Assembly (NCBI GenBank): GCA_965220085.1 | Contig: CBDCOZ010000003.1 | Coordinates: 1,024,001-1,088,000, forward strand | Reading direction: 5' to 3' | DNA length: 64,000 nucleotides | DNA from: Candidatus Oxydemutatoraceae bacterium | GTDB lineage: Bacteria; Pseudomonadota; Gammaproteobacteria; Poriferisulfidales; Oxydemutatoraceae | In this document: positions 9,723 through 43,020 of the stretch, one piece after another | Layout of the letters: every line of letters begins with the position of its first letter | Numbering within the stretch: the first letter of the stretch is position 1 | Program-made: the position numbers and the translations under genes | Notes under the pieces: model-generated | What the model was told of the DNA's origin: nothing | What the model saw: only the letters and a program-made list of their open reading frames with translations | Database searches by the model: none

Positions 9723-9735
9723 AGCGGCGAAACCG

Positions 9736-9809
9736 CGCTCCCGACAGGAGTCGAACCTGTGACATCCTTCTTAGGAGGAAGGCGCTCTATCCGGCTGAGC
9801 TACGGGAGC
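9736..9809 (-). tRNA. tRNA-Arg (anticodon CCT), CCA not encoded
   Basis: Reverse complement GCTCCCG-TAGCTCAGCCGGATAGAGC-G-CCTTC-CTCCTAA-GAAGG-ATGTC-ACAGG-TTCGACT-CCTGT-CGGGAGC-G folds as a cloverleaf. Confidence 0.95.
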
Positions 9810-9856
9810 CATGCGGTTATTCCGTAATGATACCCGATTGCGGAAAATAAGGGCGA

Positions 9857-10231: not shown

Positions 10232-10297
10232 TTGGGCAATTCAATAATTGTAAAAATTCTTTGAGGCGATAGATTGTAACCCGATTCAAGCAATAAT

Positions 10298-13200
10298 ATG
10301 AAGGTCAAAAAGGTAAAACTGACTGGTTTTAAGTCTTTTGTAGATTCCACAACGATGGAAATCACATCGGGCATGACCGGCATCGTCGGCCCGAACGGCT
10401 GCGGAAAATCCAATATCATCGATGCGGTGCGCTGGCTGATGGGACAGTCCGCCCGCAATATTCGCGCAACCAACGTAGAAGATGTGATCTTCAACGGCAC
10501 CAGCGCGCGCAAGCCGGTCGGGCAGGCGTCGGTCGAACTGGTATTCGGCAATGAGGACGGCTCTTTTGGCGGGCGCTACGCATCCTTTGGCGAGATATCG
10601 GTCAAGCGCACCGCCGACCGGGCGCGGGATTCAAAGTACTTTATCAATAATGTCCGCTGTCGCCGGCGCGATGTCGCCGACCTGTTTCTGGGCACCGGTC
10701 TTGGCACGCACAGCTATGCGCTGGTCGAGCAGGGCATGATATCCAGAATCATCGAAGCGGACCCCAAAGAGATGCGGCGCTATGTCGAAGAAGCCGCCGG
10801 CATTTCAAAATATCACGAACGGCGGCGCGAGGCCGAGATACGCATACGCCACACGCGCGAAAACCTCGACCGCCTGCTTGATATCCGCGAAGAAGTGACA
10901 AAGCAGTTGGACAAACTCAAACGGCAGGCAAAGAGCGCGCAGAAGTTTAAGGAGTTGCGGCTTGAGAAAGACAAAATCTCGGCGACGATTGCGGCGCTGG
11001 AATTGCGCGCGCACAAGGAAAAATGCGACGACTGCGAACGTCAATTATCGGATTTGCGGGTTGAGGTCGAGCGCGAGCGGGCGCAGTTGCGCGGCAACGA
11101 AGCCGAGACGGAGGAGAAGCGTGTCGGCCAGACCGAATCAAACCGCAAGCTCAATGAAATACGCGAAGAATTTTACCGCCTCAATGCGAGCGTGGGAGGC
11201 GTGGAACAGGATATTGCGAATCGCCGCAAGAATGCGGAGCAGATCAAAGCGGAAGTGGCGGCGGTTGCCGAAGCGTTGCGCAAATGCGAAGAAAAAATAC
11301 GCGAACAGGAAAGCAAACATGCTCGGACAAAAACCAAACTCAGCGAGACCGAGGAGGAGGCGGCCGCTGCGAATAGCGAATTGGCGGAGATCGATAAGCG
11401 GTTAAAGGACGAGGAGGATGCCTTTGCCAAGGCGAGCCGCGAGTGGGAGCGCCAGCACAGCGACGCATCGGAGGCGAATGAGGCGCTTGAGGTCAGCGCG
11501 ATCAAAGCCGACTACTGCGACCGCGAATTGGAAGAGATAGCGCGCCAAGAGAAGGAGCTGAAGGAGAGCCGGGCGGGGTTGGATGCGGACGGTTTGAAGC
11601 GGCAAGTTGCGGACTTGTATGAATACCGCAACACGTGCCGCGCGGATATTGACAAGCGCGCGGAACAAATCAGCGACTTGCAAAATGCGGTGGCGGCCTG
11701 CCGCAAAGAGTTGAACGAGGCGGAGCAAGCGAGCGCGGATTCGCGGCAGAAACTGCACGAAGTGCGCGAGCAATTGGCGTCGCTCAAAGCCTTGCAAGAC
11801 GCCGACGGCGGCGAGGCTTTTTCCAAATGGCTGATGCGACACGATCTGGCCGAAGCGCCTCGTCTGGCGACCAAGTTGGAGTTGGATCAGAAATGGGCGA
11901 CGGCGGTTGAAACGGTGTTGGGCAATCTGCTGACTGCGGTGGAGGTCGATTCGCTGGAGCGTTATGCGAAGGACATCGGGCAATCGGATTTGGATATGCT
12001 CGTGATGTTTGAGAAGACAGAGGATGTAAAGGGCGAAGAGCGCTCTCTTGCGTCAAAGGTCAAAACCGACTGCGGCATTAACTCGTTGCTCGGGCAGATC
12101 GTGTTGGCGGACGATCTGGAACAGGCGCTCGCCATGCGCAAGGACTTTTCAAGCCGCCAGTCCGCCGTTACGCCGGACGGTTTCTGGGTCGGGCATAACT
12201 GGATTCGGGCGCATCGGCAGAGCGACAAGAAGAAGAGCATTCTGGCGCGCCAGCATATTATCGATGAGTTAAACGGGCAATACAAGGAACTCGGCGAGCA
12301 AGCCAAATCTTGCGAGGAAGAGGGGGGACGGGTCAAAGCGAAGTTAGCCGATAACGAAAACCGGCTTGAGCAAACGCAAAAGGAGCGGCTTGACTTGCTC
12401 GACCGGACATCGGCAGCGGAAGCGGATTGGCGGCGCGCGGAAGTGAAGCTGGATCACGCGCAGGATATGCTCGCTGAGCTCGATGACAAAGAGGTCCAAC
12501 TGAGCGAGTGGCGCAAGTCTATCGAAGCGCAACGCGCCGAACACGTGAAGTTGCGCGACGAGTTGATGGGTTCGGCGTCGGTTCAAAGCGCCAATCGCAG
12601 CACGATTAAAAATACCTATCTGGAATCCGAGAAAAAAGTTGCCGCGCTGAGAGAGAGTCTGCGTCTGGCCCAAGACACATTGCACAAAATTGAAATTGAA
12701 CGGCATTCGCTGACGACCTTGGCCGCGAGTCTGGGCGAGAGTTTGAACCACCTCCGCCATCAAAAAGAAGAGCTCAGCGCCCGCCGCCAATCGCTTGTCA
12801 ATACGGAGAAGGATTTCCATGATCCGATCGAATCCAAGCGCGGCGAATTGAAGCGGCTGATTGAACAGCGCCAGGAATGCGAGGAAAAAGTGCGGGAAAA
12901 GACCGCCGAACTGGACATGCTTCAGCGCGAGACAGACACGCTGGAAAGGCAGCGGCGCGACATAGAGACCTTGCACGGCGAGTTGTTGGAGAAGCGCGGC
13001 AAGATTCAAGTGGACTTGCGCGAAGGTCGCATGCGCAGCGAGGATGCCGAGGAGCGCATCAAAGCGCTGGACATGTCGGCTGATGAGATAGAAAAAGAAC
13101 TGACCGACGAAGACAGCCTCGACAGTCTGCAAGAGAAACTGACAAAAACAGAGCGGCGCATCGATCGCCTGGGCCCGATTAATCTGGTTGCCGATCAGGA

Positions 13201-16884: not shown

Positions 16885-17751
16885 CTAGGATGCGCCGCCT
16901 ATCCGTCTTTGCATTTTCGCCGCCAGTATGGTGTTTCTTATCAGGCAAGCGACAGTCATCGGCCCGGTTCCGCCCGGCATCGGCGTGATCGCTCCGGCGA
17001 CTTTCGCGACCTCATCAAACAGCACATCGCCGTATATCTTGTCCCCCTTGCGCGTGATACCGACGTCAAAAACAGCGGCTCCGGGTTTGACATATTCGGC
17101 TGTCACAAGTTCGGGCATACCGCAGGCGGCGACGAGAATATCGGCGCGCCGGCAGACGTGAGGCAGTTGCTTCGTAGCCGAATGGCAGATCGTGACAGTG
17201 CAATCCGTTCCCTTGCGCCCCAGCAGCAGCGCCAGCGGAAGGCCGACCAAGTGCGAGCGCCCGATGACCGTCGCATTGCGCCCCTCGGTCGGTATGTCAT
17301 AGCGCTTGATCAGCTCCATCACCCCAAGCGGCGTGCAGGGCGACAAGCCGCCGCTATTGTTCAGCAAGCGTCCGAGGTTGTCGGCGCCAAGCCCGTCGAC
17401 ATCTTTGAGCGGCGGGATCAGATCAAGTATCGGCGCGACCTCAAGGTGTTTCGGCAACGGCAGTTGCAGCAAGATACCGTGCACGGTGTCATCGCGCGCC
17501 AGTTGCCGGATGGCATTTTCAACCGCATCTTGCGGCGCATCGTCGGGCAGTTCTATCAGGCGCGGTATCAGCCCTGTCTGCGCCGCCATTTTCAGTTTCA
17601 GGCCGATATAGACCCGGCTGGGAGGATAGTCGCCGACCAGAACAGTCGCCAGCGTTATCTCGCTATTGCCGCTGCGAGCGATATCGCTTGCTAATTCCGC
17701 GATGATCTTCTCTGCCGTACGTTTGCCGTCGAGCAGAATCGCCTCTTGCAT
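16885..17751 (-). CDS. folD: Bifunctional methylene-THF dehydrogenase/methenyl-THF cyclohydrolase
   Basis: HGILLQLPLP, KDVDG, PCTP, GRSHLVG, TPMPGGTGPMTV. Confidence 0.96.
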   Translation of the reverse strand: MQEAILLDGKRTAEKIIAELASDIARSGNSEITLATVLVGDYPPSRVYIGLKLKMAAQTGLIPRLIELPDDAPQDAVENAIRQLARDDTVHGILLQLPLPKHLEVAPILDLIPPLKDVDGLGADNLGRLLNNSGGLSPCTPLGVMELIKRYDIPTEGRNATVIGRSHLVGLPLALLLGRKGTDCTVTICHSATKQLPHVCRRADILVAACGMPELVTAEYVKPGAAVFDVGITRKGDKIYGDVLFDEVAKVAGAITPMPGGTGPMTVACLIRNTILAAKMQRRIGGAS

Positions 17752-17757
17752 CGTCCG

Positions 17758-18687
17758 CTATTCGCTTGCCGGTTGCTTGTCGGGATGCAGGTAGATAAAG
17801 CTCTTGCCGAGCCGCCCGCCGTAATTGCCGGCTGATATCATCAGCAGGTCGGGCGTGTCTTTTGCCGCATGGATAGCCGCCTGCGTGGCTTCAATGATGC
17901 AATCTATGCCATGCCCGTTCATGATGATTTCCATCACCGAGCCGACCCCCTCGGGCAACCCTTTTTCAACGCTCGGATCATCCTGCAACATCGGGCAGAA
18001 CTTTTCATAGGTGCTGGCAATGGAGAATTCATATTTGCTGCCGGCCTTTGAGCCGCTGCTGGCGATTCCGCCGGGAAAGGCGCAGATGACGCCGGCGACC
18101 GGCGCGATCGCGTCGACGCCTTTTTCCGCGGCGGCCAACGCGGATGTGGCATCCTTGCCAAAGAACCACAGGTTGCCCCCCATCAGCCCTTCGCGATAAC
18201 CGAGGCGCCGCTCCATCACGAACTCGCCGCCCAAAGTCGGTATCTGCCACATTTTGCGCCCATACCGCTCTATGCGCTTCTGATAACCGTTGCCGAAATA
18301 GGCGACCTTGCGCCCCATCTGATAATACGTATCCGAATCTGCCGCATTGAAGCACGAGGCGGTAGGGCAGGTCAGAATGTTCTGACTGATGCGCACCAGA
18401 GCCACCCGTTCCAGTTTGGGCACACGGTCTTTCCAGAATCTCGGCACATGGAATTGAACCAGCGCGCCCGGGCGTCCGTCCGGAGTGGTCACGCTGGCAT
18501 CGCCGCCGGGGCCGACATAGCGATCCAAGCCCGCTTCGCAGTCGCACAGAATCGTGCTGGACGCATTGCCGGCGCACGCATGAATCGCATGGTCAAGCCA
18601 CTTCCTGTTGTCGGCGGTAATCAGAACCTCGGTGTAGAGGCTCTTAAAAGCTTCGGCATAAGTATCGTCTATGATCGCCGCCATCAA
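17758..18687 (-). CDS. ftr: Formylmethanofuran-tetrahydromethanopterin N-formyltransferase family protein (Ftr/FhcD-like)
   Basis: DTYAEAF, CDCEAG, TPDGRPG, QNILTCPT, FGNGYQ, GGNL, FPGG..SGSK, EIIMNG, ISAGNYGGRLG match the recalled Ftr motif order. Confidence 0.9.
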   Translation of the reverse strand: MMAAIIDDTYAEAFKSLYTEVLITADNRKWLDHAIHACAGNASSTILCDCEAGLDRYVGPGGDASVTTPDGRPGALVQFHVPRFWKDRVPKLERVALVRISQNILTCPTASCFNAADSDTYYQMGRKVAYFGNGYQKRIERYGRKMWQIPTLGGEFVMERRLGYREGLMGGNLWFFGKDATSALAAAEKGVDAIAPVAGVICAFPGGIASSGSKAGSKYEFSIASTYEKFCPMLQDDPSVEKGLPEGVGSVMEIIMNGHGIDCIIEATQAAIHAAKDTPDLLMISAGNYGGRLGKSFIYLHPDKQPASE

Positions 18688-19316
18688 TCTCTCCCTTTGC
18701 CCTGATAGATTTCCTTTTCGGTGATCACTTTGTCCATGAAGACATCGTGCGGCCCGACCAGAATTTCCTCAAACAACTGGGCTTCGTAACAAATGGCAAT
18801 CAGCGGACAGTCGGGGCGGACTTTTTCCAACAAGCGGTCATAGTAGCCCTGACCGTTGCCCATCCGCCCGCCGGCGGGGTCAAAGCCGACGCCGGGGACC
18901 ATGACGATATCCAGCGCGGCCGGCTCGGCTTCCTTCTCCGGATTGCCCCACAGTTCGCGCGGCGGCTCCAGGATGCTCCACTTGCCGACGACCAACTCGT
19001 CAAAGTCTTCAAGCCGCCACAAACCCAGTTTGTTATCGCCGTTCTCGTCTTCGGTACAGTAAGGCACGATGATGGTTTTCTCGCCTTTCTCCACTTCCTG
19101 TCGCAGGTGTTTTTTCGTGCGGGTCTCGGAACGGCAATCTATGTACCACATCGCCACCTTGGCTTTTTGGTATTCGGGCAAGGCGATAAATTTTTCGCAA
19201 ATTCCCTCGCTGATGTTGTCTTTGTCTTCTTGCGCGGCGCGCGCATCATACGCTTTTCTGCGCATCGCATTTTTCTTTTCCATCAATTTTTCAAGTTCTT
19301 CGGGTGACAATGGCAT
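18684..19316 (-). CDS. 5-formyltetrahydrofolate cyclo-ligase
   Basis: N-terminal K..MR helix, ILEP, DIVMVPGVGFD, RMGNGQGYYDRLL, HDVFMDKVITE. Confidence 0.95.
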   Translation of the reverse strand: MPLSPEELEKLMEKKNAMRRKAYDARAAQEDKDNISEGICEKFIALPEYQKAKVAMWYIDCRSETRTKKHLRQEVEKGEKTIIVPYCTEDENGDNKLGLWRLEDFDELVVGKWSILEPPRELWGNPEKEAEPAALDIVMVPGVGFDPAGGRMGNGQGYYDRLLEKVRPDCPLIAICYEAQLFEEILVGPHDVFMDKVITEKEIYQGKGRD

Positions 19317-21179: not shown

Positions 21180-22340
21180 TTATCGGTCAAAAGCGAGTCT
21201 GACGCCGGCGAATATATGCCGTTTTTCGCGCGTGTGAAAATTCCTAAAACTAATCCTGCGGCACTCCGCCTCGCTGAAGCGGCTGGCCCCGCGCAAAGCA
21301 TAGTGCTTGTCGTCAAAAGCGGGGATGGAATATTCGGGATAAGGGAAAGGGCGGAAGTCGGGGTAGGGGTGGAAGGTGTTGTCGCACCACTCCCAAACAC
21401 AGTGCATTTTCTCAAGTTGCCCCGTATGCGCCGCTATTTCCCACTCGTATTCGTGCGGCAGGCGCGCGTTCGCATAGGCGGCAAACGCGCGCGCCTCGTA
21501 ATGGCTTATGCCGTGCACCGGCTCATCGGGCGCCAACGGGCGGCTGCCGTCGCAATGCGTTTGATGCCAACTCCCCCGCGCATCGCAAAACCACCCGTCG
21601 GGGGCGCTCACCTTGGCGGCGGCCAGCCAGCGGCGGCCGTTGCGGTCCCAATGCTCCGTGTTCCGATAGCCGCCGGCGCGGATGAAGGCGAGGTACTGCG
21701 CGTTGGTCACCGGCGTCCGGTTGATCGCAAACGCCTTCGGCGCCACCTCCTGTTGCGGCAACTCATTGTCAAAAGACCAATTATCGTTGCCGCCGACACG
21801 GGTCTGTTGGTGGTTGCCAAAGCAAACCGGCGCGTGTGTGATCGCAGCGGCCTGTGTCAGCCCCTTGCCGGCGCGGCCGCCGCCCTTGCGCGCAAACATC
21901 TGCGTCTTGATCATGCGCATCGTTTCAATGTGTTGCGCGTGATGCTGAATCAGGAACTTGAGCAAATAGTCCTGTCGCATCAACTCGTGCCGCAACAGTT
22001 TTGACGGCGCGGCTTTGAACAAAGCGATATTGTCTTGTTGCTTTTTGCGAATCTGTCGCAGCGCGTCATTCTTCGGCGGCAACTGTCCGCCGCGCTCGGA
22101 GTGCGGGCAATTTTCCGGAATGTACAGCCCCGACAGCGCCGTATCCGCCGGTTGCGCCTCCAGCACGCGCTCGCGCAACCACAGATTCTCTACGAACAAA
22201 GTGTGTCCGACATGCCAGCCGAGCGGACTCAAATGGTCGTGATAGCGATTGCGATACTCATCGTCGCTGACCCCCCGCAGCATGCCGATGAGCGTCGCAT
22301 GGATGGCGCCCAAGCGCGCGGTCAGCCGGTCGCGGTTCAT
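21180..22340 (-). CDS. egtB: EgtB-type sulfoxide synthase (DinB-like plus formylglycine-generating-enzyme-like domains)
   Basis: SPLGWHVGH, HHAQHIE metal motif, FDNELP, PVTNAQY, RLPHEYEWE, VWEW, FRNF; coupled to egtC. Confidence 0.8.
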   Translation of the reverse strand: MNRDRLTARLGAIHATLIGMLRGVSDDEYRNRYHDHLSPLGWHVGHTLFVENLWLRERVLEAQPADTALSGLYIPENCPHSERGGQLPPKNDALRQIRKKQQDNIALFKAAPSKLLRHELMRQDYLLKFLIQHHAQHIETMRMIKTQMFARKGGGRAGKGLTQAAAITHAPVCFGNHQQTRVGGNDNWSFDNELPQQEVAPKAFAINRTPVTNAQYLAFIRAGGYRNTEHWDRNGRRWLAAAKVSAPDGWFCDARGSWHQTHCDGSRPLAPDEPVHGISHYEARAFAAYANARLPHEYEWEIAAHTGQLEKMHCVWEWCDNTFHPYPDFRPFPYPEYSIPAFDDKHYALRGASRFSEAECRRISFRNFHTREKRHIFAGVRLAFDR

Positions 22341-23101
22341 AGCTTTATGACCCGCGCGGGTCGGTTGCGCTCGGCAATGAGGATGCTGTCTTCCGGCACC
22401 GCCTCCCACGCGGCGGAATCCGTCATGCGCTCGGAGGCGACGGTATGCGCGCCGGCCTCGTAATGCGCATACATCGTCAGCGCCGGCCCGCCGACGGCGG
22501 CGCGCATCACAAACAGCCTGTCGGCCTCGCTGACAATAAAATTCAGAAACGCCTCGCGTGTGCCGCGGCTGCGCAGCCACCGCCACGCCTTTTGCAGGGC
22601 ATCGGCGACGGTGTCGCCGGGGGCCTCGCGCAGGCATTGCCGAATGAGCGCGACGAGGTATTCCGAGTCGGTCAAACCGCCGATGCCCGCCGCGATATCC
22701 GGCTCCAGTATCTTGAGTATCTCGTGGCGCAGGCTGCGGCGGAAATCCGTGACAAAGCCGTTGTGGACATAGAGCCTGCCGCGGTCGCAAAAAGGCTGGC
22801 TGTTCTGCAGGCTGTTGTCAAAGCCCTCGGTGGCGCTTCGCACCATCGCAACCCACAGGTCGCGCTCCAGAGCGCTTGCCAGCCCCGCGAGGTTGCTATC
22901 GCTCCAGATCGGCATGGGGTTGCGATATGTCGCCGGCGCGCCGTCGTCTTGGTACCAACCGAAACCGAAGCCGTCGGCATTGAGTTTGGCGTAGCGGAGC
23001 TCTTTGGGCGCCCACGACTGAAGGTAGAGGCTGTGCTCGGGGGCGATGAGAAAATCCTTGAGCGGCAAGGGGTTTCCCAGATATGCTGCGAGACGACACA
23101 T
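22337..23101 (-). CDS. egtC: Class II glutamine amidotransferase, EgtC-like
   Basis: N-terminal MCRLAAYLG nucleophile Cys, NADGFGFGWY, PIWSD, HNG, TDSE. Confidence 0.88.
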   Translation of the reverse strand: MCRLAAYLGNPLPLKDFLIAPEHSLYLQSWAPKELRYAKLNADGFGFGWYQDDGAPATYRNPMPIWSDSNLAGLASALERDLWVAMVRSATEGFDNSLQNSQPFCDRGRLYVHNGFVTDFRRSLRHEILKILEPDIAAGIGGLTDSEYLVALIRQCLREAPGDTVADALQKAWRWLRSRGTREAFLNFIVSEADRLFVMRAAVGGPALTMYAHYEAGAHTVASERMTDSAAWEAVPEDSILIAERNRPARVIKL

Positions 23102-23210
23102 GGTTTGGCAAATCTGCGGAGTATGGAGTATGGGGAGTATGAAAAGAGTTATACCCGACTCGGAAGTGTGAGAACCGACTCCCGCGCAAGGGAGCGCCGG
23201 TCAGCGGATG

Positions 23211-24824
23211 CTATCGCAACGGCCCTTCCAAGAAGAGGCGCAGGCGCAAGCGTATATCAACCCCCAGGTGGATGGTCATCGTATAGGTTTCTGTGCTGTC
23301 TGCGGCGCCATCGTGTACTGTGAAGGTGAAACTGGCGAAGTCGGAGGCGGCGCGGGCGCCAGTCGGGGGATACCAAGTGAAAGTGCCATCCTCCAGATTG
23401 GCAGCGGTCACCGAGGCGCCGTTGGCCACTGCGGTACCGCCATTGCGCAAGGTGCCGGTGCCGGGTGCTATGGTCTCAATGATGGTGATCGCGACCAAGG
23501 CCGCGTTGTTATCATCATCCATGAACGGGAAGTCGGAGACCTTGAAGACGAAGGGCTCGGCTGAGGTTGTGGTTGTGGGCACCTTCACCGAATTGTCGGC
23601 GCTGGTAGGGGCATCGTTGACATTGGCGATGATGTTGCCTGTGGTGCAGCGTCGCTCGCTGTTGGGCGGCGTGAAGTTGTCCTCAAAGGATACGCACACC
23701 CGCACAAACTTGTCGACATGCGCCTGCAACGGCGTGAAAGTGGCGGCGGTGGCCCCGCCAATATCGGCGTAGTTGGGGGGCGCGTCATTGCCCGGAGGAT
23801 CAGCCTGTTGCCATTGCCAGGCGATGGTGGAGCGGTTAATACCAGCATTTCCGTCTGCGACAGTGCCGGTGGTTGCGGTGTGGGTCACATCCTCGTTCCA
23901 GACTGTGCTACCCGCGGGTACCTCCACAGCGGGCAGACCGATGGCCTCCACCTGCGTCGTCGGCCACACCAGGTCTATGGTGATGGTGGCGGAATTGGAA
24001 CTGTCACCAACATCAAGGAAAGTGCCAGCCCGCACAGTGCGCACTCTGAAATCAAAGCTAGTATAGTTGGCCATGGGTGCAGTGACATCATCGGGAAGGA
24101 GGTAGGTCAGGCCCCTGAAAGGGCCTGAAGTTGTCAGACCTGCCTTGGACACTACCGTGTTTGGGGCAAGTACCCTGCTTGATCCCGCATGCAGAGTGCC
24201 TCTGGCGGGTACAGTGGTCAGAGTTATGCGCTCCAGAGTAGCATTGCTATCTTCATCGCTAAAGAGGAAGACATCATCAAACGGGAGTATATAGTAACCA
24301 CCCGTTATAGGCACAGAGATGGTGTTGGGTAGCGCAACCGGGTCATCATTGACATTGGCCACAGCGGTGGCTATCTGCAGGCATCGCTCCTCCTCATTGG
24401 GGGTGGTGGCCATATCCATGAACGACGCGCAGACCTGCAGAAACTTGCCCACCTCATCATCGCCCGGAGTGAATGCGGCATTGGTCGCGCCGGCTATGTC
24501 GGTGTAAGTGCCGCCGTTGGTGTTGGCCGCACTCCATTGCCAGCTGAGGGTGCCCAGGCCATCGGGGTCGGCTATGGTGCCCTGAGCCGCGGTGATGGCG
24601 GAGTCCTCAGTGGGGGTGTTGCCACTGGCGTAGGTGACGGCGGGTGTGCCGGTGGCCGGGCTGTTGGTCTGCGCCTGGGCCGGGTTTGCATACGGCAATG
24701 CAATCAGGGCGAGCAACATCAGCGACCACAGACTCCCGCGGATTCGTGTTGCCCACCATTGCGCGGGAGTCATATCGAAAATTTGACAGATCATATCTAC
24801 GGTTTTAATAACGACATGTTTCAT
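23211..24824 (-). CDS. Secreted Ig/cadherin-like repeat protein ending LRLRLFLEGPLR
   Basis: Hydrophobic signal ending AQA|Q; two WQW..YxDIxGAT..F.P..VCxSF modules alternate with two F.DxD..L..IT..GTL modules; start uncertain. Confidence 0.8.
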   Translation of the reverse strand: MKHVVIKTVDMICQIFDMTPAQWWATRIRGSLWSLMLLALIALPYANPAQAQTNSPATGTPAVTYASGNTPTEDSAITAAQGTIADPDGLGTLSWQWSAANTNGGTYTDIAGATNAAFTPGDDEVGKFLQVCASFMDMATTPNEEERCLQIATAVANVNDDPVALPNTISVPITGGYYILPFDDVFLFSDEDSNATLERITLTTVPARGTLHAGSSRVLAPNTVVSKAGLTTSGPFRGLTYLLPDDVTAPMANYTSFDFRVRTVRAGTFLDVGDSSNSATITIDLVWPTTQVEAIGLPAVEVPAGSTVWNEDVTHTATTGTVADGNAGINRSTIAWQWQQADPPGNDAPPNYADIGGATAATFTPLQAHVDKFVRVCVSFEDNFTPPNSERRCTTGNIIANVNDAPTSADNSVKVPTTTTSAEPFVFKVSDFPFMDDDNNAALVAITIIETIAPGTGTLRNGGTAVANGASVTAANLEDGTFTWYPPTGARAASDFASFTFTVHDGAADSTETYTMTIHLGVDIRLRLRLFLEGPLR

Positions 24825-24844
24825 GCATGCACGATTAGTGCCCT

Positions 24845-25080
24845 ACTATACCATAAAACGCGCGTCATCCGCTCATGTCTTTGTATCTTGCCGCATCCCT
24901 TGTGCGCACAGCACACGAACCCAATCGCCTTGGACCGCTCATGCCTTTGTATCCTGCCGCATCCCTTGTGCCTCCCCCTGACATTCCCTTCTCCCTGCGG
25001 GATATTCGCAATCGCCGTTTTACAACAGTTTCCGCTGTCGGGCGGACGAGTCGCATACGCAAGCCCCTATTCCGATTATG
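24845..25080 (-). promoter_or_regulatory. Conserved leader element upstream of the LEGPLR gene, ending in candidate extended -10 TGgTATAGT
   Basis: Shares GGGAATGTC.GGG...ACAAGG.AT...GGATAC with 28475-28645, 43021-43135 and 58671-58785; internal 37-bp direct repeat at 24869 and 24935. Confidence 0.6.
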
Positions 25081-25090
25081 CTTGATGGCT

Positions 25091-26013
25091 GCTTGATACC
25101 ATGACATGTCGGACACCCAGAGCAATATTGCGAGCCTCACGACCGCTTGAAGCTGTGACATGTCGGACACCCAGAGCAATATTGCGAGCCTCACGACCGC
25201 TTGAAGCTGTGACATGTCGGACACCTAGAGCAATGTTGTGTGCCTCACGACCACTTGAAGCCACGACACATCGGACACCTAGAGCAATGTTGTGTGCCTC
25301 ACGACCGCTTGAAGCCACGACACATCGGACACCTAGAGCAGTATCGTGTGCCTCATGGTTGCATGAAGCCACGACACATCGGACACCCAGAGCAACATTG
25401 TGCGCCTCACGTCCGCTTGAAGTCACGACATGCCGGACACCTAGAGCAATATCGTGTGCCTCACGGTTGCTTGAAGCCACGACACATCGGACACCTAGAG
25501 CAATATTGCGAGCCTCACGGACGCTTGAAGCTGTGACATGTCAGACACCCAGAGCAACATTGTGCGCCTCACGTCCGCTTGAAGTCACGACATGCCGGAC
25601 ACCTAGAGCAAACATTGTGTGCCTCACGGTTGCTTGAAGCCACGACACATCGGACACCCAGAGCAACATTGTGCGCCTCACGACCACTTGAAGCCGCGAC
25701 ACATCGGACACCCAGAGCAAACATGTGCCTCATGGCCGCTTGAAGCCACGACACATCGGACACCTAGAACAATACCGTGTGCCTCACGGCTGCTTGATGC
25801 CACGACACATCGGACACCTAGAGCAGTATCGTGTGCCTCATGGTTGCATGAAGCCACGACACATCGGATACCTAGAGCAAACATGTGCCTCACGACTGCT
25901 TGAAGCCACGACACATCGGACACCCAGAGCAAATGCTGTATGCCTCACGACCACTTGATGCCACGACACATCGGACACCTAGAGCAAACATGTGCCTCAC
26001 GGCTACTTGATGC
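25091..26013. repeat. Minisatellite, about 17 copies of a 52-55 bp (mostly 54 bp) unit
   Basis: Core TTGAAGCCACGACACATCGGACACCYAGAGCA recurs at 25111, 25165, 25219 and onward to 25973. Confidence 0.95.
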
Positions 26014-26283
26014 TTCGGTTCGCAGTGTGCTCCCTTCGTGGTGGTGTCAAACCATAACAGAATTCATGACAACTCGTGTTGATGTCGGCAAACCAAAATG
26101 TTTCCGGCATCATTCAGAAAAAATCACGCCGTGAATCGGCGCTATTAGACCGTTCGTCAGGCAATCAATGCCGCCTGTCTATGGGTTGATCGCGGTCGCC
26201 GAATGAGCGCTATTATCCGGCACGAAGGTTATTGACCATAACCTCTTAATTAGTATTATTATTACAACCCGGAGGGAATAATC

Positions 26284-27084
26284 ATGAAGAAACCAAAAAA
26301 TTTAAAAGCGGAAGATGCGGCGGTTGCTGCTTATGGCTCCGTCGAGAACTTGACCGACGCAGGCTTTGACAAGGAGAAAGCGCGCGCGATTGCCAGCGAT
26401 CTATCCGCACTGTTGCGCAGACACCTGAGCGCTCTGGCAACGAAAAGCGAATTTGCCGAGTTTGAATCAGCGATTAGAGAAAAAATTGCCGAGTTTGAAT
26501 CGGCGATTAGAGAAAAAATTGCCGAGTCTGAATCAGAGATTGGAGAAAAGTTTGCCGAGTTTAAATCAGAGATTGTAGAAAGACTTGCCGAGTTTGAATC
26601 AGCAATCAGAGAGGAACTTGCCCAGCATAGGTCGGAAATCAAAAAAGAAACAGATGAGTTGAAAGCAACAGTAACTAAGTTGCAAGTAACAGTAGCTGAG
26701 TTGAAAGTAATGATAGCCGAGTCCGGGGCAAAAACCCAAAAACAAATAGATGAGTTGAGAGTGCTGATAGCCGAGTCTGGGGCAAAAACACAAAAACAAA
26801 TAGATGAGTCCGGGGCAAAAACCCAAAAACAAATAGATGAGTTGAGAGTGCTGATAGCCGAGTCTGGGGCAAAAACACAAAAACAAATAGATGAGTTGAG
26901 AGTACTGATAGCCGAGTCCGGGGCAAAAACCCAAAAACAAATAGATGAGTCCGGGGCAAAAACACAAAAACAAATAGATGAGTTGAGAGTAATGATATCT
27001 GAGCACACAGCAAAAATCACAACTCTGTTCGTGATAGTCTCCCTTGGGTTAGCGGCTCTTGTTATTGCGGCGCTAACTATATAG
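26284..27084 (+). CDS. DUF1640/CCDC90-like membrane-anchored coiled-coil protein with internal repeats
   Basis: Head L..AGF..EKARAI, LATK neck, repeats AEFESAIREKI and AESGAKTQKQIDELRVLI, C-terminal TM helix; GGAGG RBS; AT-richer than its neighbours. Confidence 0.75.
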   Translation: MKKPKNLKAEDAAVAAYGSVENLTDAGFDKEKARAIASDLSALLRRHLSALATKSEFAEFESAIREKIAEFESAIREKIAESESEIGEKFAEFKSEIVERLAEFESAIREELAQHRSEIKKETDELKATVTKLQVTVAELKVMIAESGAKTQKQIDELRVLIAESGAKTQKQIDESGAKTQKQIDELRVLIAESGAKTQKQIDELRVLIAESGAKTQKQIDESGAKTQKQIDELRVMISEHTAKITTLFVIVSLGLAALVIAALTI

Positions 27085-27221
27085 TCTCCCTTGGGTTAGC
27101 GGCTCTTGTTATTGCGGCGCTAACTATATAGTCTCCCTTGGGTTAGCGGCTCTTGTTATTGCGGCGCTAACTATATAGTCTCCCTTGGGTTAGCGGCTCT
27201 TGTTATTGCGATGCTATCTAT
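27034..27221. repeat. Tandem array (4 x 47 bp) of the 3' end of the coiled-coil gene
   Basis: ATAGTCTCCCTTGGGTTAGCGGCTC at 27034, 27081, 27128 and 27175. Confidence 0.96.
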
Positions 27222-27355
27222 ATTTATTGCACTCTCCGCTTAGGCCTGTGCCGTATCTTGTTCGCGCCGACAGAGAGGGGGCATGTTTCACAGACAGCGC
27301 TCCCTCTCCGGCGTAGCGCAACTGCGCCGACTCTCCCTCGCGGGGAGCGCTCGCG

Positions 27356-27397
27356 CTATCGCAACGGGCATTCAAGGAAGAGGCGCAGCCGCAACTG
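27356..27397 (-). pseudogene. Orphan decayed tail of a LEGPLR-family gene (QLRLRLFLECPLR*)
   Basis: Reverse complement cag ttg cgg ctg cgc ctc ttc ctt gaa tgc ccg ttg cga tag, followed by CGCGAGCGC.CCCCGCG as after 43020 and 58670. Confidence 0.85.
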
Positions 27398-27408
27398 TGC
27401 GGCGGATT

Positions 27409-28314
27409 TCAAGGTCTGCGTTCCCCGTCCATCCACGACAGATCCCGGGATATGACAAGTTCGGTCATGGTTGCGTGGCGGGTGTTTTTCATCGCCACGG
27501 GTCGGGATTCAAAGCCGTATTTGTCGACCAGTTGCCGCACCTCATCGGCATTGTTGTAGGTCATCACGAAGTCGCCGGGCAATTCGGCGCAGAGCGCGAA
27601 CAGCCTGTCATGGTCCAAGCTGTGGTGCGTATACAGGCGGCTACCGGCGTTTTTGCCGCCGACGGTGTATGGCGGGTCTGTGAAGAATGCCGCATCGCCA
27701 TCGCCCATATGGCGGCGGATGCAGGCCATGGCATCGCCATGCTCAAAGCGCAGGCAATGGCGCGCGCGGTCTATGGCGCACAGCCTTTTGGCCAGAGTCT
27801 GCGGATACCATCCGGACATCAGCCCTCTGCCGCCTTCGCCGGTTTTTATCAGCCCGGAGCCACCGGCCAATATGCCGCCGCGCAGGGTGCGATTGCGCAC
27901 TATGGTCTGGAAGGCGCGTTCCCTGACGGAGCCGGGTTGTGCGGATATGACTGCGGTGACCGCATCTCTGGACATCTCAAATGACAGTATGCGCCGGGCC
28001 AGCCATTCGGCATCGCCCGCCATCAGCGTCTGCCAGACCGCCGCTACCGCATCGTCCAGCTCCACCATCAGGGCGCGCCCGGTCAGGCCCTCAAACACCG
28101 CTGTCAGCGAGATGATGCCGCCCCCGGCAAAAGGTTCCACCAGCAATGCCGGCCGCGCCCGACGACCGCCCAGCCATTGCCGCAAGCGCGGCACAAACCA
28201 GGTCTTGCCGCCCGCATAGCGAAAGGGGCTGCGATGCGGCACAGATGCCACATTCACAGGATTGGCAGATACGGAATCCGCATGCGCACCGGCAAAAAGG
28301 GCGACTTGTTGCAT
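27409..28314 (-). CDS. D12-class (Dam-family) N6-adenine DNA methyltransferase
   Basis: SPFRYAGGKTW, EPFAGGG (motif I), DPPY (motif IV), ELVI. Confidence 0.92.
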   Translation of the reverse strand: MQQVALFAGAHADSVSANPVNVASVPHRSPFRYAGGKTWFVPRLRQWLGGRRARPALLVEPFAGGGIISLTAVFEGLTGRALMVELDDAVAAVWQTLMAGDAEWLARRILSFEMSRDAVTAVISAQPGSVRERAFQTIVRNRTLRGGILAGGSGLIKTGEGGRGLMSGWYPQTLAKRLCAIDRARHCLRFEHGDAMACIRRHMGDGDAAFFTDPPYTVGGKNAGSRLYTHHSLDHDRLFALCAELPGDFVMTYNNADEVRQLVDKYGFESRPVAMKNTRHATMTELVISRDLSWMDGERRP

Positions 28315-28316
28315 AG

Positions 28317-28478
28317 TTAATTGCCTCCCAGAGGGGAATCCATGCGCTTGTTCACAGGTTCGGCTTCCAACTTCTCGTCCGCTTTGGCTTGCAAGGTATC
28401 AACAAACACATCCATTTTGCCCACTTTTGGCCGGGTTATGCCACGCAGAGCGGCATCAAATTTTGTATACAGAATCAT
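28317..28478 (-). pseudogene. Probable C-terminal remnant of the cognate restriction endonuclease (recalled resemblance to NotI-family C-termini)
   Basis: 53-aa frame YTKFDAAL..IT.P..G.M..F...LQ.K.DE.LE stops 2 bp before the MTase start; the family call is from memory and unverified. Confidence 0.4.
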
Positions 28479-28645
28479 AAAGCGCGAGCCATCCGCAATG
28501 TCTTGGGTATCCGGTCTCGCCCCTGTATCCCTTGTATGCCCCCCGACATTCCCTTTCCGCCGGCGGGACATTCGCAATCGCCGTTTTACAACGGTTTCCG
28601 TTGTCGGCGGGCGGGGCGCGTACGCATGCCCCTCTTCCGATTATG
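28475..28645 (-). repeat. Second copy of the leader element
   Basis: GACATTCCCTT...TTCGCAATCGCCGTTTTACAAC.GTTTCCG.TGTCGG...GCCCCT.TTCCGATTATG is shared with about 24950-25080. Confidence 0.85.
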
Positions 28646-28705
28646 TATCCGCGACCCTATCATGCTAATATAGAGGGCATATCATCCGACAGAAACCCTT
28701 CTCTC

Positions 28706-29710
28706 ATGACAGACAGCACTCAGCCGTCGCTTCATACGTTGCAGAATATCGATGCGGAAGCTTGCGCGCCTTCTTTGCGCGACGATGTGTTGCAAGGGCT
28801 TTTCGCCGATCAAAAAACGTTGCCGTCAAAATACTTCTATGACGAGAAGGGTATGCGGATATTCGCGCGGATTTGTCAGTCGGACGAATACTATCTGACC
28901 CGCGCCGAGAACCGAATGTTGAAGGAGAAGGCCGCGGCGATCATCGCTTCCGCACAACCTCAGAATATCATTGAGTTGGGCAGCGGCTCATCGGACAAGA
29001 TACGCTTTTTTCTGGACGCTTGCGGTCGGCGCAACATACGCTGCAAGTATTGGCCGTTGGATGTGTGTTCGGAAGCGCTGGCGACGATGACCGGCATCTT
29101 GGCGGCGGAGTACCCGTGGTTGCGTATCAACGCTTTGGTCGGAGATTACGGCAATGGCTTGGAGGCCGTCGGCCTGCCGCAAAACGAGCGCAATCTGGCG
29201 CTGTTTATGGGCAGTACGATCGGCAATCTGACCCATCCTCAGGCGGTTTCCTTTTTGCGCCGGATTCGGCTCTTGGTCGGCGCGCAAGGGCGGTTGTTGG
29301 TCGGCATGGATCGGGTGAAAGATGTCGCGACGCTGACCGCCGCGTATAACGACGCGCAGGGTTTGACCGCGCAATTCAACATGAACATTCTTGAAGTGCT
29401 GAATGGTCGCATGGGGGCGAACTTTGAAGCGGACAAGTTTGAGCACCGCGCGGTGTATAACGAATCGCAAAGCCGGATAGAGATGCACCTTGTTTCAAAG
29501 GAAGAGCAGAGCGTGTATTTTGAAAGTTTGGACAAGCGCCTCGCTCTGCGGCGGGACGAAACGATTCGCACCGAGATCAGTCGCAAATTTTGCGATGACG
29601 AAATTGAATCGTTGCTGAGCGAAAGCGGATTTGCGTTTGAGCGACACTATGTGTCCGATAACGGTTATTTTTCTTTGGCGCTGGCCAAGAATGCGGGGGA
29701 GGAGGCTTGA
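28706..29710 (+). CDS. egtD: L-histidine N-alpha-trimethyltransferase
   Basis: KTLPSKYFYDEKG, EYYLTRAE, ELGSG, GSTIGN, AYNDAQG, RIEMHL, TEISRKF. Confidence 0.95.
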   Translation: MTDSTQPSLHTLQNIDAEACAPSLRDDVLQGLFADQKTLPSKYFYDEKGMRIFARICQSDEYYLTRAENRMLKEKAAAIIASAQPQNIIELGSGSSDKIRFFLDACGRRNIRCKYWPLDVCSEALATMTGILAAEYPWLRINALVGDYGNGLEAVGLPQNERNLALFMGSTIGNLTHPQAVSFLRRIRLLVGAQGRLLVGMDRVKDVATLTAAYNDAQGLTAQFNMNILEVLNGRMGANFEADKFEHRAVYNESQSRIEMHLVSKEEQSVYFESLDKRLALRRDETIRTEISRKFCDDEIESLLSESGFAFERHYVSDNGYFSLALAKNAGEEA

Positions 29711-29711
29711 G

Positions 29712-30410
29712 ATGGCCGAAGTGCTTGTCGTCGATGATGATCCGTCCATATGCGATATGCTTTGCTTCTTGTTGGGCAGCGAAGGGTATCGGGTGCGCAA
29801 GGCGTATGACGCTCGCGAGGCGTTGCGGCGCGTCGGAGAAAAGGTTCCGGATCTCGTGCTGGTCGATTGGATGATGCCCGGCATGAACGGGGTTGAGTTG
29901 ATTCGCTGTTTGCGCTCCGAGCCGACCACACGGCGGTTGCCGATCATCATGCTCACCGCCAAAGACAGCGAGAGCGACAAAGTCGAAGGGCTGGTCGTCG
30001 GCGCCGATGACTATATCCTGAAGCCGTTTTCCAATCGCGAACTGTGCGCGCGTGTCAAAGCCCTTTTGCGCCGCGCCAAGCCGCACAAGACGCAAGAGAA
30101 AGTCGTCTGCAAAGACATGACCCTGGACCCGCAGTTGCATAGCGTCAATATCAACGGGGAGGATATTGTCATCCCGGCGACAGAGTTTCGTTTGTTGCAC
30201 TTCTTGACCGCCCACGAAGGCCTGGTATTTTCCCGCCGCCAGTTGTTGGACGGCGTTTGGGGCACGGAGAGATTTGTCGAGGATCGCACGGTCGATGTGC
30301 AGGTCGGCAGGTTGCGCAAAACATTGGCGCAGAACGGCAAGCGGCATATCGCCCAAAAGGTTCGGACTATCAGGGGCATCGGTTACAGTTATCGCGGCGA
30401 TGGCGCTTGA
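29712..30410 (+). CDS. phoB: Phosphate regulon response regulator
   Basis: DWMMPG, PIIMLTAK, GADDYILKPFS, RTVDVQVGRLRK, TIRGIGY; next to phoR and pst. Confidence 0.9.
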   Translation: MAEVLVVDDDPSICDMLCFLLGSEGYRVRKAYDAREALRRVGEKVPDLVLVDWMMPGMNGVELIRCLRSEPTTRRLPIIMLTAKDSESDKVEGLVVGADDYILKPFSNRELCARVKALLRRAKPHKTQEKVVCKDMTLDPQLHSVNINGEDIVIPATEFRLLHFLTAHEGLVFSRRQLLDGVWGTERFVEDRTVDVQVGRLRKTLAQNGKRHIAQKVRTIRGIGYSYRGDGA

Positions 30411-30460: not shown

Positions 30461-31564
30461 ATGAAAATTCTCTCGCATTTGCGGCAGCGGTTTGCATTGC
30501 CGTCGGAAGATGTTCCCGCCTCCGGCGGGCGGGATGCGGCGGCGCTTGATCGCGAGCTGTTATTGGTTGCCGGTCTTGAATCGGCGGGCGACGGTTGCGG
30601 CCTGATTCTGGTCAAAGACAAGGGCAACATCGTCTGGTTTAATGAGCCGAGTCGCCGCTGGTTTGCTTTGTCCCGGGCGCGGGATATAGGCGAGAACATT
30701 ACCCATCTGATTCGCAACCCGACATTCTTGGAACGCTTTAAGCAAGGAAACTTTGGCGAGATGATGATATTCAGAGAGATTAACCCCGGTCTGAGCGCGG
30801 GCATCAGCATCTTGCCGTGGAGCGCCGATTACCGGTTGATCATCGTCCATGATTTTTCTCAGCGGCAGAGGCTTGAGGACTCCGGTCGCGAGATCATGGC
30901 GAATCTGTCGCACGAGTTGCGTTCTCCGTTGACGGTGATCAAGGGCTATCTCGATACCCTGAGTACGATCTATGACAGCGGCAAAGACAAGGATATTTCC
31001 GCCGCGCTCCGCAACATGCTCAAGCAGTGCGTGCGGATGCAGCAGTTGGTCGAGGATACCTTGTTGCTCGGACGCTTGGAAACGAGCGAGGTGCGCGCGG
31101 ATGAACTTGAGACGGTGGACATTCCGCTGCTTGTCGACGGCCTGACCGGCGACTTGCAAGAAGTGTGGCCGGGGCGGGAGATTGAGATCAGCGGCGAGAG
31201 GCATAGCATGAATTGCATCCGCGCCGACATATACAGCGTGCTGAGCAATCTGCTGAGCAACGCGCTCAACTATTCTGGCGCCGACAGCACGGTGCGATTG
31301 GAGTGGCACACACGGGACGACGGTTTTTATTTTGCTGTGACGGATCGGGGAATCGGGATTGAGGCGACACATATCCCGTACCTGAGCGAGAGGTTTTACC
31401 GCGTGGACAAAGCGCGGTCAAACGCTACCGGCGGCGTCGGTCTGGGCTTGGCAATCGTCGCCCGCACCCTCGACCGTTACGGCGCTCGGCTCAGAATCGA
31501 CAGCGAATACGGCGTCGGCAGCACCTTCTCGTGCATCTTTCCGCGCGAGCATATCGTCCGCTGA
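30461..31564 (+). CDS. phoR: Phosphate regulon sensor kinase (no obvious TM segment)
   Basis: PAS-like IVWFN..HLIRNPTF, SHELRSPLTVIKGY, NLLSNA, ERFYRVDKARS, GLGLAIV; alternative TTG start at 30407. Confidence 0.88.
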   Translation: MKILSHLRQRFALPSEDVPASGGRDAAALDRELLLVAGLESAGDGCGLILVKDKGNIVWFNEPSRRWFALSRARDIGENITHLIRNPTFLERFKQGNFGEMMIFREINPGLSAGISILPWSADYRLIIVHDFSQRQRLEDSGREIMANLSHELRSPLTVIKGYLDTLSTIYDSGKDKDISAALRNMLKQCVRMQQLVEDTLLLGRLETSEVRADELETVDIPLLVDGLTGDLQEVWPGREIEISGERHSMNCIRADIYSVLSNLLSNALNYSGADSTVRLEWHTRDDGFYFAVTDRGIGIEATHIPYLSERFYRVDKARSNATGGVGLGLAIVARTLDRYGARLRIDSEYGVGSTFSCIFPREHIVR

Positions 31565-32199
31565 CGGCGCATAGAATCGCCGGCGGCGTCGGTTTGCGCT
31601 TGGCAATCGTCGCCCGCACCCTCGACCGCTACGGCGCTCGGCTCAGAATCGACAGCGAATACGGCGTCGGCAGCACCTTCTCGCGCATCTTTCCGCGCGA
31701 GCATATCGTCCGCTGACGGCGCATAGAATCGCCGGCGGCGTCGGTTTGGGCTTGGCAATCGTCGCCCGCACCCTCGACCGTTACGGCGCTCGGCTCAGAA
31801 TCGACAGCGAATACGGCGTCGGCAGCGCCTTCTCGCGCATCTTTCCGCGCGAGCATATCGTCCGCTGACGGCGCATAGAATCGCCGGCGGCGTCGGTCTG
31901 GGCTTGGCAATCGTCGCCCGAACCCTCGACCGCTACGGCGCTCGGCTCAGAATTGACAGCGAATACGGCGTCGGCAGCGCCTTCTCGCGCATCTTTCCGC
32001 GCGAGCATATCGTCCGCTGACGGCGCATAGAATCGCCGGCGGCGTCGGTCTGGGCTTGGCAATCGTCGCCCGAACCCTCGACCGTTACGGCGCTCGGCTC
32101 AGAATCGACAGCGAATACGGCGTCGGCAACACCTTCTCGCGCATCTTTCCGCGCGAGCATATCGTCCGCTGACGGCGCATAGAATCGCCGGCGGCGTCG
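31428..32199. repeat. Tandem array (5 x 152 bp) of the phoR 3' end including its stop codon
   Basis: CCGGCGGCGTCG at 31428, 31580, 31732, 31884, 32036 and a terminal copy at 32188. Confidence 0.97.
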
Positions 32200-35967: not shown

Positions 35968-36828
35968 CTACCGCAACGGGCCTTCCAGGAAGAGGCGCAG
36001 GCGCAGATTGATCGCGTCCCCGATTATCCGGACGCCGTCGGAGCACAACGGCCCCTCGTTGCCGGGAGTGGTATGCCTGTCCATAAAGCTGATGCAGACC
36101 CTGATGTACATCCACGCCTGATCATCCGCGGGGACAAATATTCTGTTGGTCGCGCCGCTGATGTCGGCATATGCGCCGGTGCGGGCGGGGGATTGTTGCC
36201 ATTGCCAACTCTGGGTGAGAATGTTGATGATATTGAGGTCAACAACATCGGAACTATCGTCCGTCAGTTGCTGACCTCTGTCGTATGTTCTCCGGGGAGG
36301 CGAGCCCGGGGCGATTATCGTGGGCGCGCCGGTGGCTTTTTGTTGCTGGGATGCGCGAAGATGGATGGTGGCCGTGGCGGTACGGGATTCATCGCCGCCG
36401 GCAGTGATGCTGTATGTAAAGGCGGTGTAGTTCAATTGCGCGCTCTGGCTCGGTTGCGGGTAGTAGGTGATGGTGTTGATACTGCCTTCTGCCACATTCT
36501 GGCCTGCGGTGGCGGCGGAGTTGCCTACCCGCATGGTGCCAAGGAGCGGCAGGCTCTTTATCGTGATGTGGTCCAAGGGATCGGAATCTGCGTCAAGAAA
36601 AGGGAAGTCGCTTTTCACGAAGCTGTCCGGGCTGGCGGCGGTGGCGTTGTGCGGCACCCATATTGCGGTGTCCCTGGCCGCCGGTCCGGCCTGTGCGACT
36701 GGCGCGGTCGGGTCTGCGGTGTTGTGCGGTTGGTCGCTATGTGCCTGACCGCAGACGGCAATCAGGACGAGCAACCAGAGGGCGCGACCATCGCTGTTGC
36801 CCGTCGGTTGCGTCAAGGGAGTAAACAT
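35968..36828 (-). CDS. Secreted two-domain Ig/cadherin-like protein ending LRLRLFLEGPLR
   Basis: Signal LWLLVLIAVCGQAHS; same two module types as 23211-24824; TATAAT at 36863-36868 and AAGGA RBS. Confidence 0.8.
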   Translation of the reverse strand: MFTPLTQPTGNSDGRALWLLVLIAVCGQAHSDQPHNTADPTAPVAQAGPAARDTAIWVPHNATAASPDSFVKSDFPFLDADSDPLDHITIKSLPLLGTMRVGNSAATAGQNVAEGSINTITYYPQPSQSAQLNYTAFTYSITAGGDESRTATATIHLRASQQQKATGAPTIIAPGSPPRRTYDRGQQLTDDSSDVVDLNIINILTQSWQWQQSPARTGAYADISGATNRIFVPADDQAWMYIRVCISFMDRHTTPGNEGPLCSDGVRIIGDAINLRLRLFLEGPLR

Positions 36829-42693: not shown

Positions 42694-42990
42694 TCTTTCT
42701 ATTGTCCGGCCAACACTTGAGTGCGACCGCTTCATATCGGTTAGTCGGAGGGTATCTTAACACAAGGCGATGCGGTTCAGGGACATCGGGCTTGTTTGCC
42801 GACTGCCGCGCTCGCCCTTGGGCTTCCCTTGCGCTTCTTTGACTCGTGCTTGCCGGGTTCCTTGCCAGCCGGATAAACCGCGTTCCTTTCAATACAACCC
42901 GACAGATTGCCATCATCCTCGCATGTCTCTCGGCAGGCGCCGAACCTCGCCGCGACCGCGTTTCTTTCATGGATCGGTTTTCCGTGCCCG

Positions 42991-43020
42991 CGCCTCTTCT
43001 TTGAAGGCCTGTTGCAATAG
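42991..43020 (+). pseudogene. Orphan decayed tail of a LEGPLR-family gene (RLFFEGLLQ*)
   Basis: cgc ctc ttc ttt gaa ggc ctg ttg caa tag, followed by about 140 bp homologous to 58671-58812. Confidence 0.8.

Follow-up and report, generated by a model that had tools for sequence, protein, structure and literature searches.

In a 64,000-nucleotide (nt) stretch of the genome of a Candidatus Oxydemutatoraceae bacterium (the window, whose coordinates are used throughout), an apparent remnant of a Type II restriction-modification (R-M) unit lies on the - strand between a leader and a C-terminal tail that belong to an unrelated family of surface-protein genes, here called the LEGPLR family after the end of its tail. 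The remnant comprises the last 53 codons of a putative restriction endonuclease gene and a predicted D12-class N6-adenine DNA methyltransferase gene (hereafter the methylase). Probably the body of a LEGPLR-family gene was replaced here in an illegitimate recombination, the R-M remnant being the one-off product of this event within a 5.6-kb island. A preliminary description of the locus had offered two proposals, a replacement of this kind, leaving the methylase under the family promoter, and a cassette capture system with leader and tail as fixed ends and replaceable cargo between them. The first, its promoter part apart, is the best reading of the evidence that follows; a cassette-capture system is not supported.

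The R-M remnant and its methylase gene

Reading the - strand from 29200 to 27000, we found the leader, the 53-amino-acid (aa) frame, the intact methylase gene and the tail in the places and the order previously described (Table 1). Two bases separate the 53-codon frame from the 301-aa methylase open reading frame (ORF), GGGAGG stands 8 nt ahead of the methylase ATG, and 11 nt lie between the methylase stop and the first codon of the tail, QLRLRLFLECPLR. The stop codon of this orphan tail is followed by CGCGAGCGCTCCCCGCG, the downstream motif of the earlier description; CGCGAG comes directly after 65 of the 225 tails that we found in the genome and YGCGAR after 95. A 30-nt tail probe gave three matches in the window and none in 100 shuffles.

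When the region 22000-30000 was compared with the whole genome by BLAST, positions 28472-27425 aligned without gaps to C2:119073-118026, at 85.2% identity over 1048 nt. The methylase gene of this C2 copy (315 aa) is preceded by two overlapping ORFs, which score 102 and 104 bits against PF12183 (cut-off 22), cover profile positions 8-140 and 146-238, and look like one endonuclease gene frameshifted in a short G run. A homology search of the 53-aa frame, a check called for in the preliminary description, recovered the C-terminus of this PF12183-bearing endonuclease (80% identity over 51 aa). The frame is part of an 86-aa ORF, which matches no Pfam or NCBIfam family, PF12183 included, because the remnant lies C-terminal of the Pfam domain. 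We read the frame as the 3'-terminal part of a gene for a NotI-family restriction endonuclease, joined in frame to a leader-derived ATG. Besides the frameshifted C2 copy, no other endonuclease fragment was found in the genome. The endonuclease beside the window methylase is reduced to its last 53 codons, with a ratio of non-synonymous to synonymous divergence (dN/dS) of 0.36 on 51 codons, from 8 synonymous and 10 non-synonymous differences, numbers too small for an interpretation. The cargo as a whole has the appearance of a decayed Type II R-M unit whose restriction function is gone.

The order of endonuclease gene and then methylase gene, with a gap of 2 nt, is common to this locus, the C2 copy and the locus of the relative G003, where the endonuclease gene directly upstream of the methylase gene has an internal stop. 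In the relatives L006, L008 and L009 the methylase gene is present with no endonuclease gene within 1.5 kb, and loss of the endonuclease with retention of the methylase appears to recur in this group. The divergence between the two copies in the present genome seems too great for a recent internal duplication, and the C2 copy has neither leader nor tail beside it. Its surroundings (L001, G000:C2:112000-125000, about 5600-10600) form a defence-type neighbourhood, in which the R-M genes begin right where a truncated AAA_14 ATPase gene ends (151 aa vs 398 aa in a paralogue nearby) and are adjoined by a GmrSD-type endonuclease gene.

The window methylase matches PF02086 with 32 bits (cut-off 22, E 1.3e-7) and misses the threshold of the Dam (GATC) methylase model TIGR00571, with 25 bits against a cut-off of 114.85; the earlier assignment to the Dam family holds at the level of the D12 class and fails for Dam itself. 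In a 10-sequence alignment it has the invariant residue wherever the nine homologues agree, EPFAGGG and DPPY included. The S-adenosylmethionine-binding FxGxG motif, F62-A63-G64-G65-G66, and the catalytic DPPY, D213-P214-P215-Y216, are among these invariant columns, and the C-terminus lies 4 residues past the last conserved block, SWMDG, as in P0057. In a search of 5.8 billion proteins, 8000 candidates were scored and 6505 had E <= 0.001; the best 120, the window protein itself excluded, are 56-81% identical to the query, 276-356 aa long and cover 90-100% of it, and where a name is given it is 'DNA adenine methylase'. Homologues at about 60% identity are widespread. From these comparisons the gene is predicted to code for a full-length D12-class adenine methyltransferase that is not a Dam orthologue.

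Relative to the C2 copy, the methylase has a dN/dS of 0.26 at a synonymous divergence (dS) of 0.40, a ratio that fits continued selection for methylation. At columns otherwise conserved 8/8 there are five changes in the window methylase (H145R, R168G, A218V, A263V, H279R) and three in the C2 copy; a relative-rate test of the two copies at conserved columns counted 8 vs 10 changes and found no asymmetry (p = 0.81). The R-M piece has a guanine-cytosine (GC) content of 60.5% vs 55.8% for the genome, and at third codon positions (GC3) a value of 0.715 vs 0.675-0.72 in neighbouring genes, figures that do not appear to mark a recent foreign origin. The description of the fragment as foreign is apt in that it is unrelated to the adhesin family, but it is not compositionally alien.

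Both junctions of the piece look non-homologous, with a microhomology of a few bases at most. At the 5' junction, which falls inside the -10 box of the leader, leader similarity runs up to ...GCGCTTTATGAT and C2 homology starts from CTGtATACAAAATTTGATG (28472), few bases at most being shared. At the 3' junction, C2 homology runs up to ...TGGATGGACGG (27425), just past the conserved methylase core ending in SWMDG, where the homologues turn variable; the next 27 nt, in which the new stop codon lies, are matched by neither partner, and their final 10 (ATCCGCCGCA) may be a corrupted tail start. The tail itself is cut near the start of its conserved part, and the two junctions share no recombination site.

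Logan contigs from run X1, which may be the sample from which the window was assembled, cover 27252-27911 across the 3' junction and 28439-29000 across the 5' junction, and a contig from a second sample, run X2, covers 28392-28542 across the 5' junction, all with 0 differences. Because these short-read contigs cross both junctions without a difference, an error peculiar to this one assembly does not account for them. No other arrangement of the locus was confirmed.

The LEGPLR family, its leader and the surrounding island

A six-frame scan for ORFs ending in x[LI]RLRLR[LIV]FLEGPLR before the stop codon found 225 tail-bearing ORFs in the genome, 213 of them ending exactly in FLEGPLR. Their median length is 385 aa and their maximum 15193 aa, and their 160,491 residues take up ~19% of the 2.49-Mb genome. 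Synonymous positions of the tail vary freely and all three stop codons are used (TAG 145, TAA 52, TGA 28); what is conserved is therefore the protein sequence. A degenerate DNA pattern of the tail had 157 matches here and matched neither in reversed-pattern controls nor in 40 genomes from the same family and order. The C-terminal 42 residues of the 537-aa protein encoded beside the locus, searched against the 5.8 billion proteins, returned 12 candidates and 10 matches, all from this genome; this search is weak evidence of the rarity of the tail, its word filter having missed most of the genome's own tails. The string 'FLEGPL' had no match in a full-text literature search. The tail-bearing genes of the window include 23211-24824 (-), 35968-36828 (-) and 43713-58670 (+).

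Thirty-eight of the 225 ORFs are shorter than 100 aa, 18 of them in tandem gene-end arrays and 20 isolated. The orphan tail, whose frame is open for 26 aa and for which blastx of the 1.5 kb upstream found no family protein, is one of 11 among the 20 for which the upstream 1.5 kb contains no family body on the same strand, and because of these it is not special in this genome. Another stray tail, RLLLRLRIFLEGALR, stands at G000:C3:1245322 (-), 221 nt past an ORF that we read by eye as translation initiation factor IF-1 (infA). In the window, a decayed tail, IGFPCPRLFFEGLLQ, lies at 42975-43020 (+), and the 4985-aa gene starts ~700 nt downstream of it; the post-tail element is the same behind this decayed tail as behind the tail of that giant gene (58670). 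Tandem gene-end arrays are common in the genome; at 31428-32199, 5.1 repeats (97% matches) of a 152-bp unit containing the last phoR codons produce a series of short ORFs ...GVGSTFSRIFPREHIVR.

Full copies of the leader number four: leader-A at the locus, 25154-24935 before the 537-aa gene, C3:1580326 before the frameshifted paralogue of that gene and C3:1319438 before a HIT-family gene, the last three being 83-86% identical to leader-A. They are followed by two family genes, one R-M piece and one HIT-family gene; the copy before the HIT-family gene is itself cut ahead of its -10 box, and no tail comes after that gene. The paralogue (L003, G000:C3:1574000-1584000, 4431-6106, -) is split into overlapping ORFs of 304 and 290 aa, by a frameshift or an assembly error. 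A search of 20 relatives did not find the leader.

The leader is composite, as is seen from a profile of its four copies. Its 5' half (about 28643-28576) is a hairpin-bearing repeat with copies of its own elsewhere, and its 3' half (about 28575-28490) is the element that comes after the stop codon of some LEGPLR tails; it aligns with the post-tail sequence at 58670, after the 4985-aa gene, and at 43020, after the decayed tail, and is significant at E<1e-3 for 6 of the 225 tails. The leader runs on into a promoter module with a -35-like TTGCA or TTGCG, about 16 nt, and then TGGTATAGT or TGGTAGAGT. At nine other aligned loci the module continues unbroken through ...GCGCGTTTTATGGTATAGT into the 5' untranslated region (5'UTR), whereas leader-A ends at TTTATGAT. 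Since the family -10 box, TATAGT, is lost from leader-A, expression of the methylase from the family promoter, as first proposed, is doubtful and rather unlikely; what is left, TTGCGG and a chance TATGAT, has a poor spacing of 14 nt, as read from the sequence.

Three candidate features of the leader were rejected. A consensus fold of the four leaders had 29 predicted pairs, none with a compensatory change, and gave no case for a structured RNA; an Rfam scan of 24500-29000 at E<=1 had no match. A scan for consensus promoters found 5 sites vs 3.1 expected, and the sole hit near the leader, TTAGCA-17-CATAAT at 28668-28640 (-), has a -35 part that is not conserved in the other copies. The similarity of GGAAAC.GTTG in the leader to GGAAGGCCCGTTG, which would make it a fossil tail, is short and overlaps the hairpin of the independent repeat, and is not claimed.

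The locus lies between egtC-like and egtD-like genes, the latter (PF10017, E 2.7e-103) being followed by phoB and phoR. The orthologues of these two genes are divergent neighbours in relatives, separated by 124 bp in G001, 346 bp in G003, 151 bp in G008 and ~1.4 kb in G006, compared with 5.6 kb in the window, and we regard the intervening stretch as a lineage-specific island. Followed in - strand order, it contains leader-A, the R-M remnant and the tail, then the 3' flank and body of the convergent coiled-coil gene with its 47-bp x 4 array, and after the 54-bp x 16.9 array it ends in leader-B and the 537-aa gene.

At C3:1318155-1319581, between ccmA and the HIT-family gene, the segment bounded by the tail and leader-B is found again, with an identity of 83-96%. 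This second block (L002, G000:C3:1312000-1324000, 6156-7581) has a leader truncated ahead of the -10 box and a decayed tail, RWRRRIFPECPLR, with no gene upstream. The orphan tail and the tail of the second block have in common an unusual Cys in ECPLR, and because high identity begins in the middle of the tail, the comparison suggests a crossover inside it. In five relatives the HIT-family gene is never within 1.5 kb of ccmA, so this synteny does not show the second block as an insertion.

The coiled-coil gene belongs to a family of ~12 copies, in which a LEGPLR tail often directly adjoins the 170-nt 3' flank; it has internal 33-, 54- and 87-bp repeats, and its 47-bp x 4 array (27034-27223) spans the stop codon. 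Its hydrophobic C-terminus is read as a predicted membrane anchor. The repeat that contains the post-tail hairpin is also found at C3:1318155, 704981, 859518, 1300296 and other places. The 54-bp unit of the 16.9-fold array at 25091-26001 (83% matches) occurs as single copies before two other leaders. Elsewhere in the window, at 16885-19316 (-), genes for methylene-tetrahydrofolate dehydrogenase/cyclohydrolase, formylmethanofuran-tetrahydromethanopterin formyltransferase and 5-formyltetrahydrofolate cyclo-ligase stand together, which hints at one-carbon (methylotroph-type) metabolism.

Table 1. Features of the island and its flanks, in window coordinates
Feature	Position	Strand	Basis or remark
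egtD-like gene	28706-29710	+	PF10017; ATG at 28706
Leader-A (composite intergenic repeat)	28473-28650	-	homology to other leader copies; cut at -10 box
53-codon frame	28317-28478	-	ATG 28478-28476 inside leader TTTATGAT; stop 28319-28317
R-M fragment by homology to C2 unit	27425-28472	-	aligned to C2:119073-118026
Putative D12-class N6-adenine DNA methyltransferase gene, 301 aa	27409-28314	-	PF02086; stop 27411-27409
Junction filler, 27 nt, with new methylase stop codon	27398-27424	-	C2 homology stops at 27425
Orphan LEGPLR tail, QLRLRLFLECPLR	27356-27397	-	tail scan; blastx upstream
Post-tail hairpin CGCGAGCGCTCCCCGCG... and repeated 3' flank of convergent coiled-coil gene	27175-27355	-	repeat copies elsewhere
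Coiled-coil gene	26284-27084	+	family of ~12 copies; hydrophobic C-terminus
Leader-B, promoter intact	24935-25154	-	preceded by 54-bp x 16.9 tandem array (25091-26001)
537-aa LEGPLR-tailed protein gene	23211-24824	-	weak cadherin-like match; intact leader-to-tail unit beside the locus
Lineage-specific island (as interpreted), ~5.6 kb	23150-28650		between egtC-like and egtD-like genes
egtC-like gene	22337-23101	-	Pfam
egtB-like gene	21180-22790		Pfam

History of the locus

In the replacement that we consider probable, a family gene would once have stood between leader-A and the orphan tail, as in 30 intact units elsewhere in the genome. An illegitimate recombination, at the arrival of the R-M unit or in a later trimming, would then have removed the -10 box, the 5'UTR and all but the last 13-16 codons of that gene, and with them most of the endonuclease gene, while on either side the break stopped short of the methylase core; the gene probably lives on as that of a solitary methylase. 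This is the earlier proposal of an R-M fragment replacing the body of an adhesin gene. It gains from the cut of the leader inside its module and from that of the tail near its conserved start.

Several observations weigh against the replacement. No remnant of the body or the signal peptide of a family gene survives, and the former gene is for this reason reconstructed from its two ends alone. That both breaks fall near recognisable repeat edges is improbable for two random cuts, and fits equally well with repeats that landed beside an R-M unit. A block that begins with a bare tail exists elsewhere too, at C3:1318155-1319581, and the dS of 0.40 between the R-M copies fixes neither the source nor the time of the event. 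Because both methylase copies are altered at otherwise conserved columns, the activity of the enzyme would not be assured. Finally, one X1 Logan contig joins 27273 to 28578, bypassing the tail, the R-M piece and part of leader-A, with 24 letters on its shorter side and a depth of 34.5, equal to single-copy depth. No locus in the assembly matches this joint, which is most likely a repeat-induced join from elsewhere.

A different order of events is possible, though we hold it to be unlikely: the R-M unit would have entered the egtC/egtD intergenic region first, and dispersed family repeats would have arrived later and separately, a leader fragment on one side and a block of tail, coiled-coil gene, leader-B and adhesin gene on the other, truncating the endonuclease without replacing any gene body. 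The second bare-tail-to-leader block, which has no adhesin gene on either side, is in keeping with such arrivals, as are the stray tails beside unrelated genes, for example near the IF-1-like ORF, and the fact that leader-A, unlike the other three leader copies, has no 54-bp unit upstream. At least two independent events would be needed, however, each ending exactly at an edge of the methylase piece; leader-A is cut within a module that is continuous in nine aligned loci, and so resembles a truncated resident promoter rather than the end of a mobile piece; and no transposase or recombinase that could move the blocks was found among the large ORFs scanned.

That the promoter module and the tail with its hairpin serve as portable homology, by which unrelated genes are slotted into surface-protein expression sites through illegitimate recombination anchored in repeats, the methylase being the first captured, strikes us as very unlikely; were it true, the methylase would be under surface-protein control and genome methylation would be tied to adhesin regulation.

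Cassette capture proper, with leader and tail as fixed recombination ends and the R-M piece as one captured cassette, we judge extremely improbable. Family sequence does bracket the cargo closely on both sides, the 3' half of the leader recurs after some tails in direct orientation, so that repeat-mediated exchange is conceivable, and the joint of 27273 with 28578 lies unexplained near those repeats. The genome-wide pattern is a different one. The promoter core YGCRYWTTRTGRTAKART is intact at 30 sites (in the window at about 24845-24870, -), and at all 30 the next tail on the same strand lies 941-3593 nt downstream. A tail-bearing ORF fills at least 74% of the interval in 26 of these units, and the other four intervals are covered by blastx matches to family proteins, with frameshifts, late starts or two genes in a row; unrelated cargo was found in none of the 30. 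No leader/tail pair other than that of this locus thus encloses unrelated cargo, the outcome for which the preliminary description had foreseen a one-off insertion-deletion. No recombinase or integrase family was detected among the 15 large ORFs at 16.9-41.9 kb, the scan being limited to large ORFs. Neither junction, moreover, shows homology, one falling within the promoter and the other directly ahead of the tail, with no site common to the two; the C2 copy stands free of leader and tail; and a leader-like element follows only a handful of tails.

Least credible of all is a chimeric join of repeats in the assembly that created the adjacency of leader, R-M piece and tail: the genome is indeed full of dispersed and tandem repeats, but the contigs of both X1 and X2 cross junctions without a difference.

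Comparison with known systems

We take the locus to be a solitary methylase from a decaying Type II R-M system, whose sole unusual aspect is its frame of family repeats. On its own it is of little import, as one more solitary methylase left by R-M decay. It does mark how this genome rearranges, since repeats of both kinds, tail and promoter, lie where local rearrangements have broken it. What stands out in the genome is the tail family itself with its shared promoter: about a fifth of the genome length is made up of 225 genes with one C-terminal tag, and 30 have one promoter core.

Illegitimate recombination, or its homology-facilitated form, is known at dispersed repeats. The locus resembles such events in having junctions almost or entirely devoid of homology next to repeats that provide it. 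It differs in that neither a donor molecule nor anchor homology can be identified, and the mechanism proposed here is an inferred one. With integrons and gene-cassette systems the likeness is confined to the outward picture of conserved sequence on either side of a cargo, with a promoter on one; unlike these, the window locus has no integrase among the 15 large ORFs, no shared junction site, no array and no second cargo.

Orphan or solitary methylases that lack a restriction partner are described as widespread (PMC12707154). As in solitary methylases derived from the decay of Type II R-M systems, the window methylase is whole and its cognate endonuclease is truncated, and decay is equally seen in the frameshifted C2 endonuclease and in the internal stop of that of G003. 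The locus shares the gene order and the 2-nt gap of pairs of a NotI-family endonuclease (PF12183) and a D12-class methylase (PF02086), but its endonuclease consists of 53 codons from beyond the Pfam domain. What sets it apart from the usual solitary methylases is that the deletion ends in repeats of an unrelated and very large surface-protein family, so that the remnant is seemingly framed by that family's promoter and C-terminal tag.

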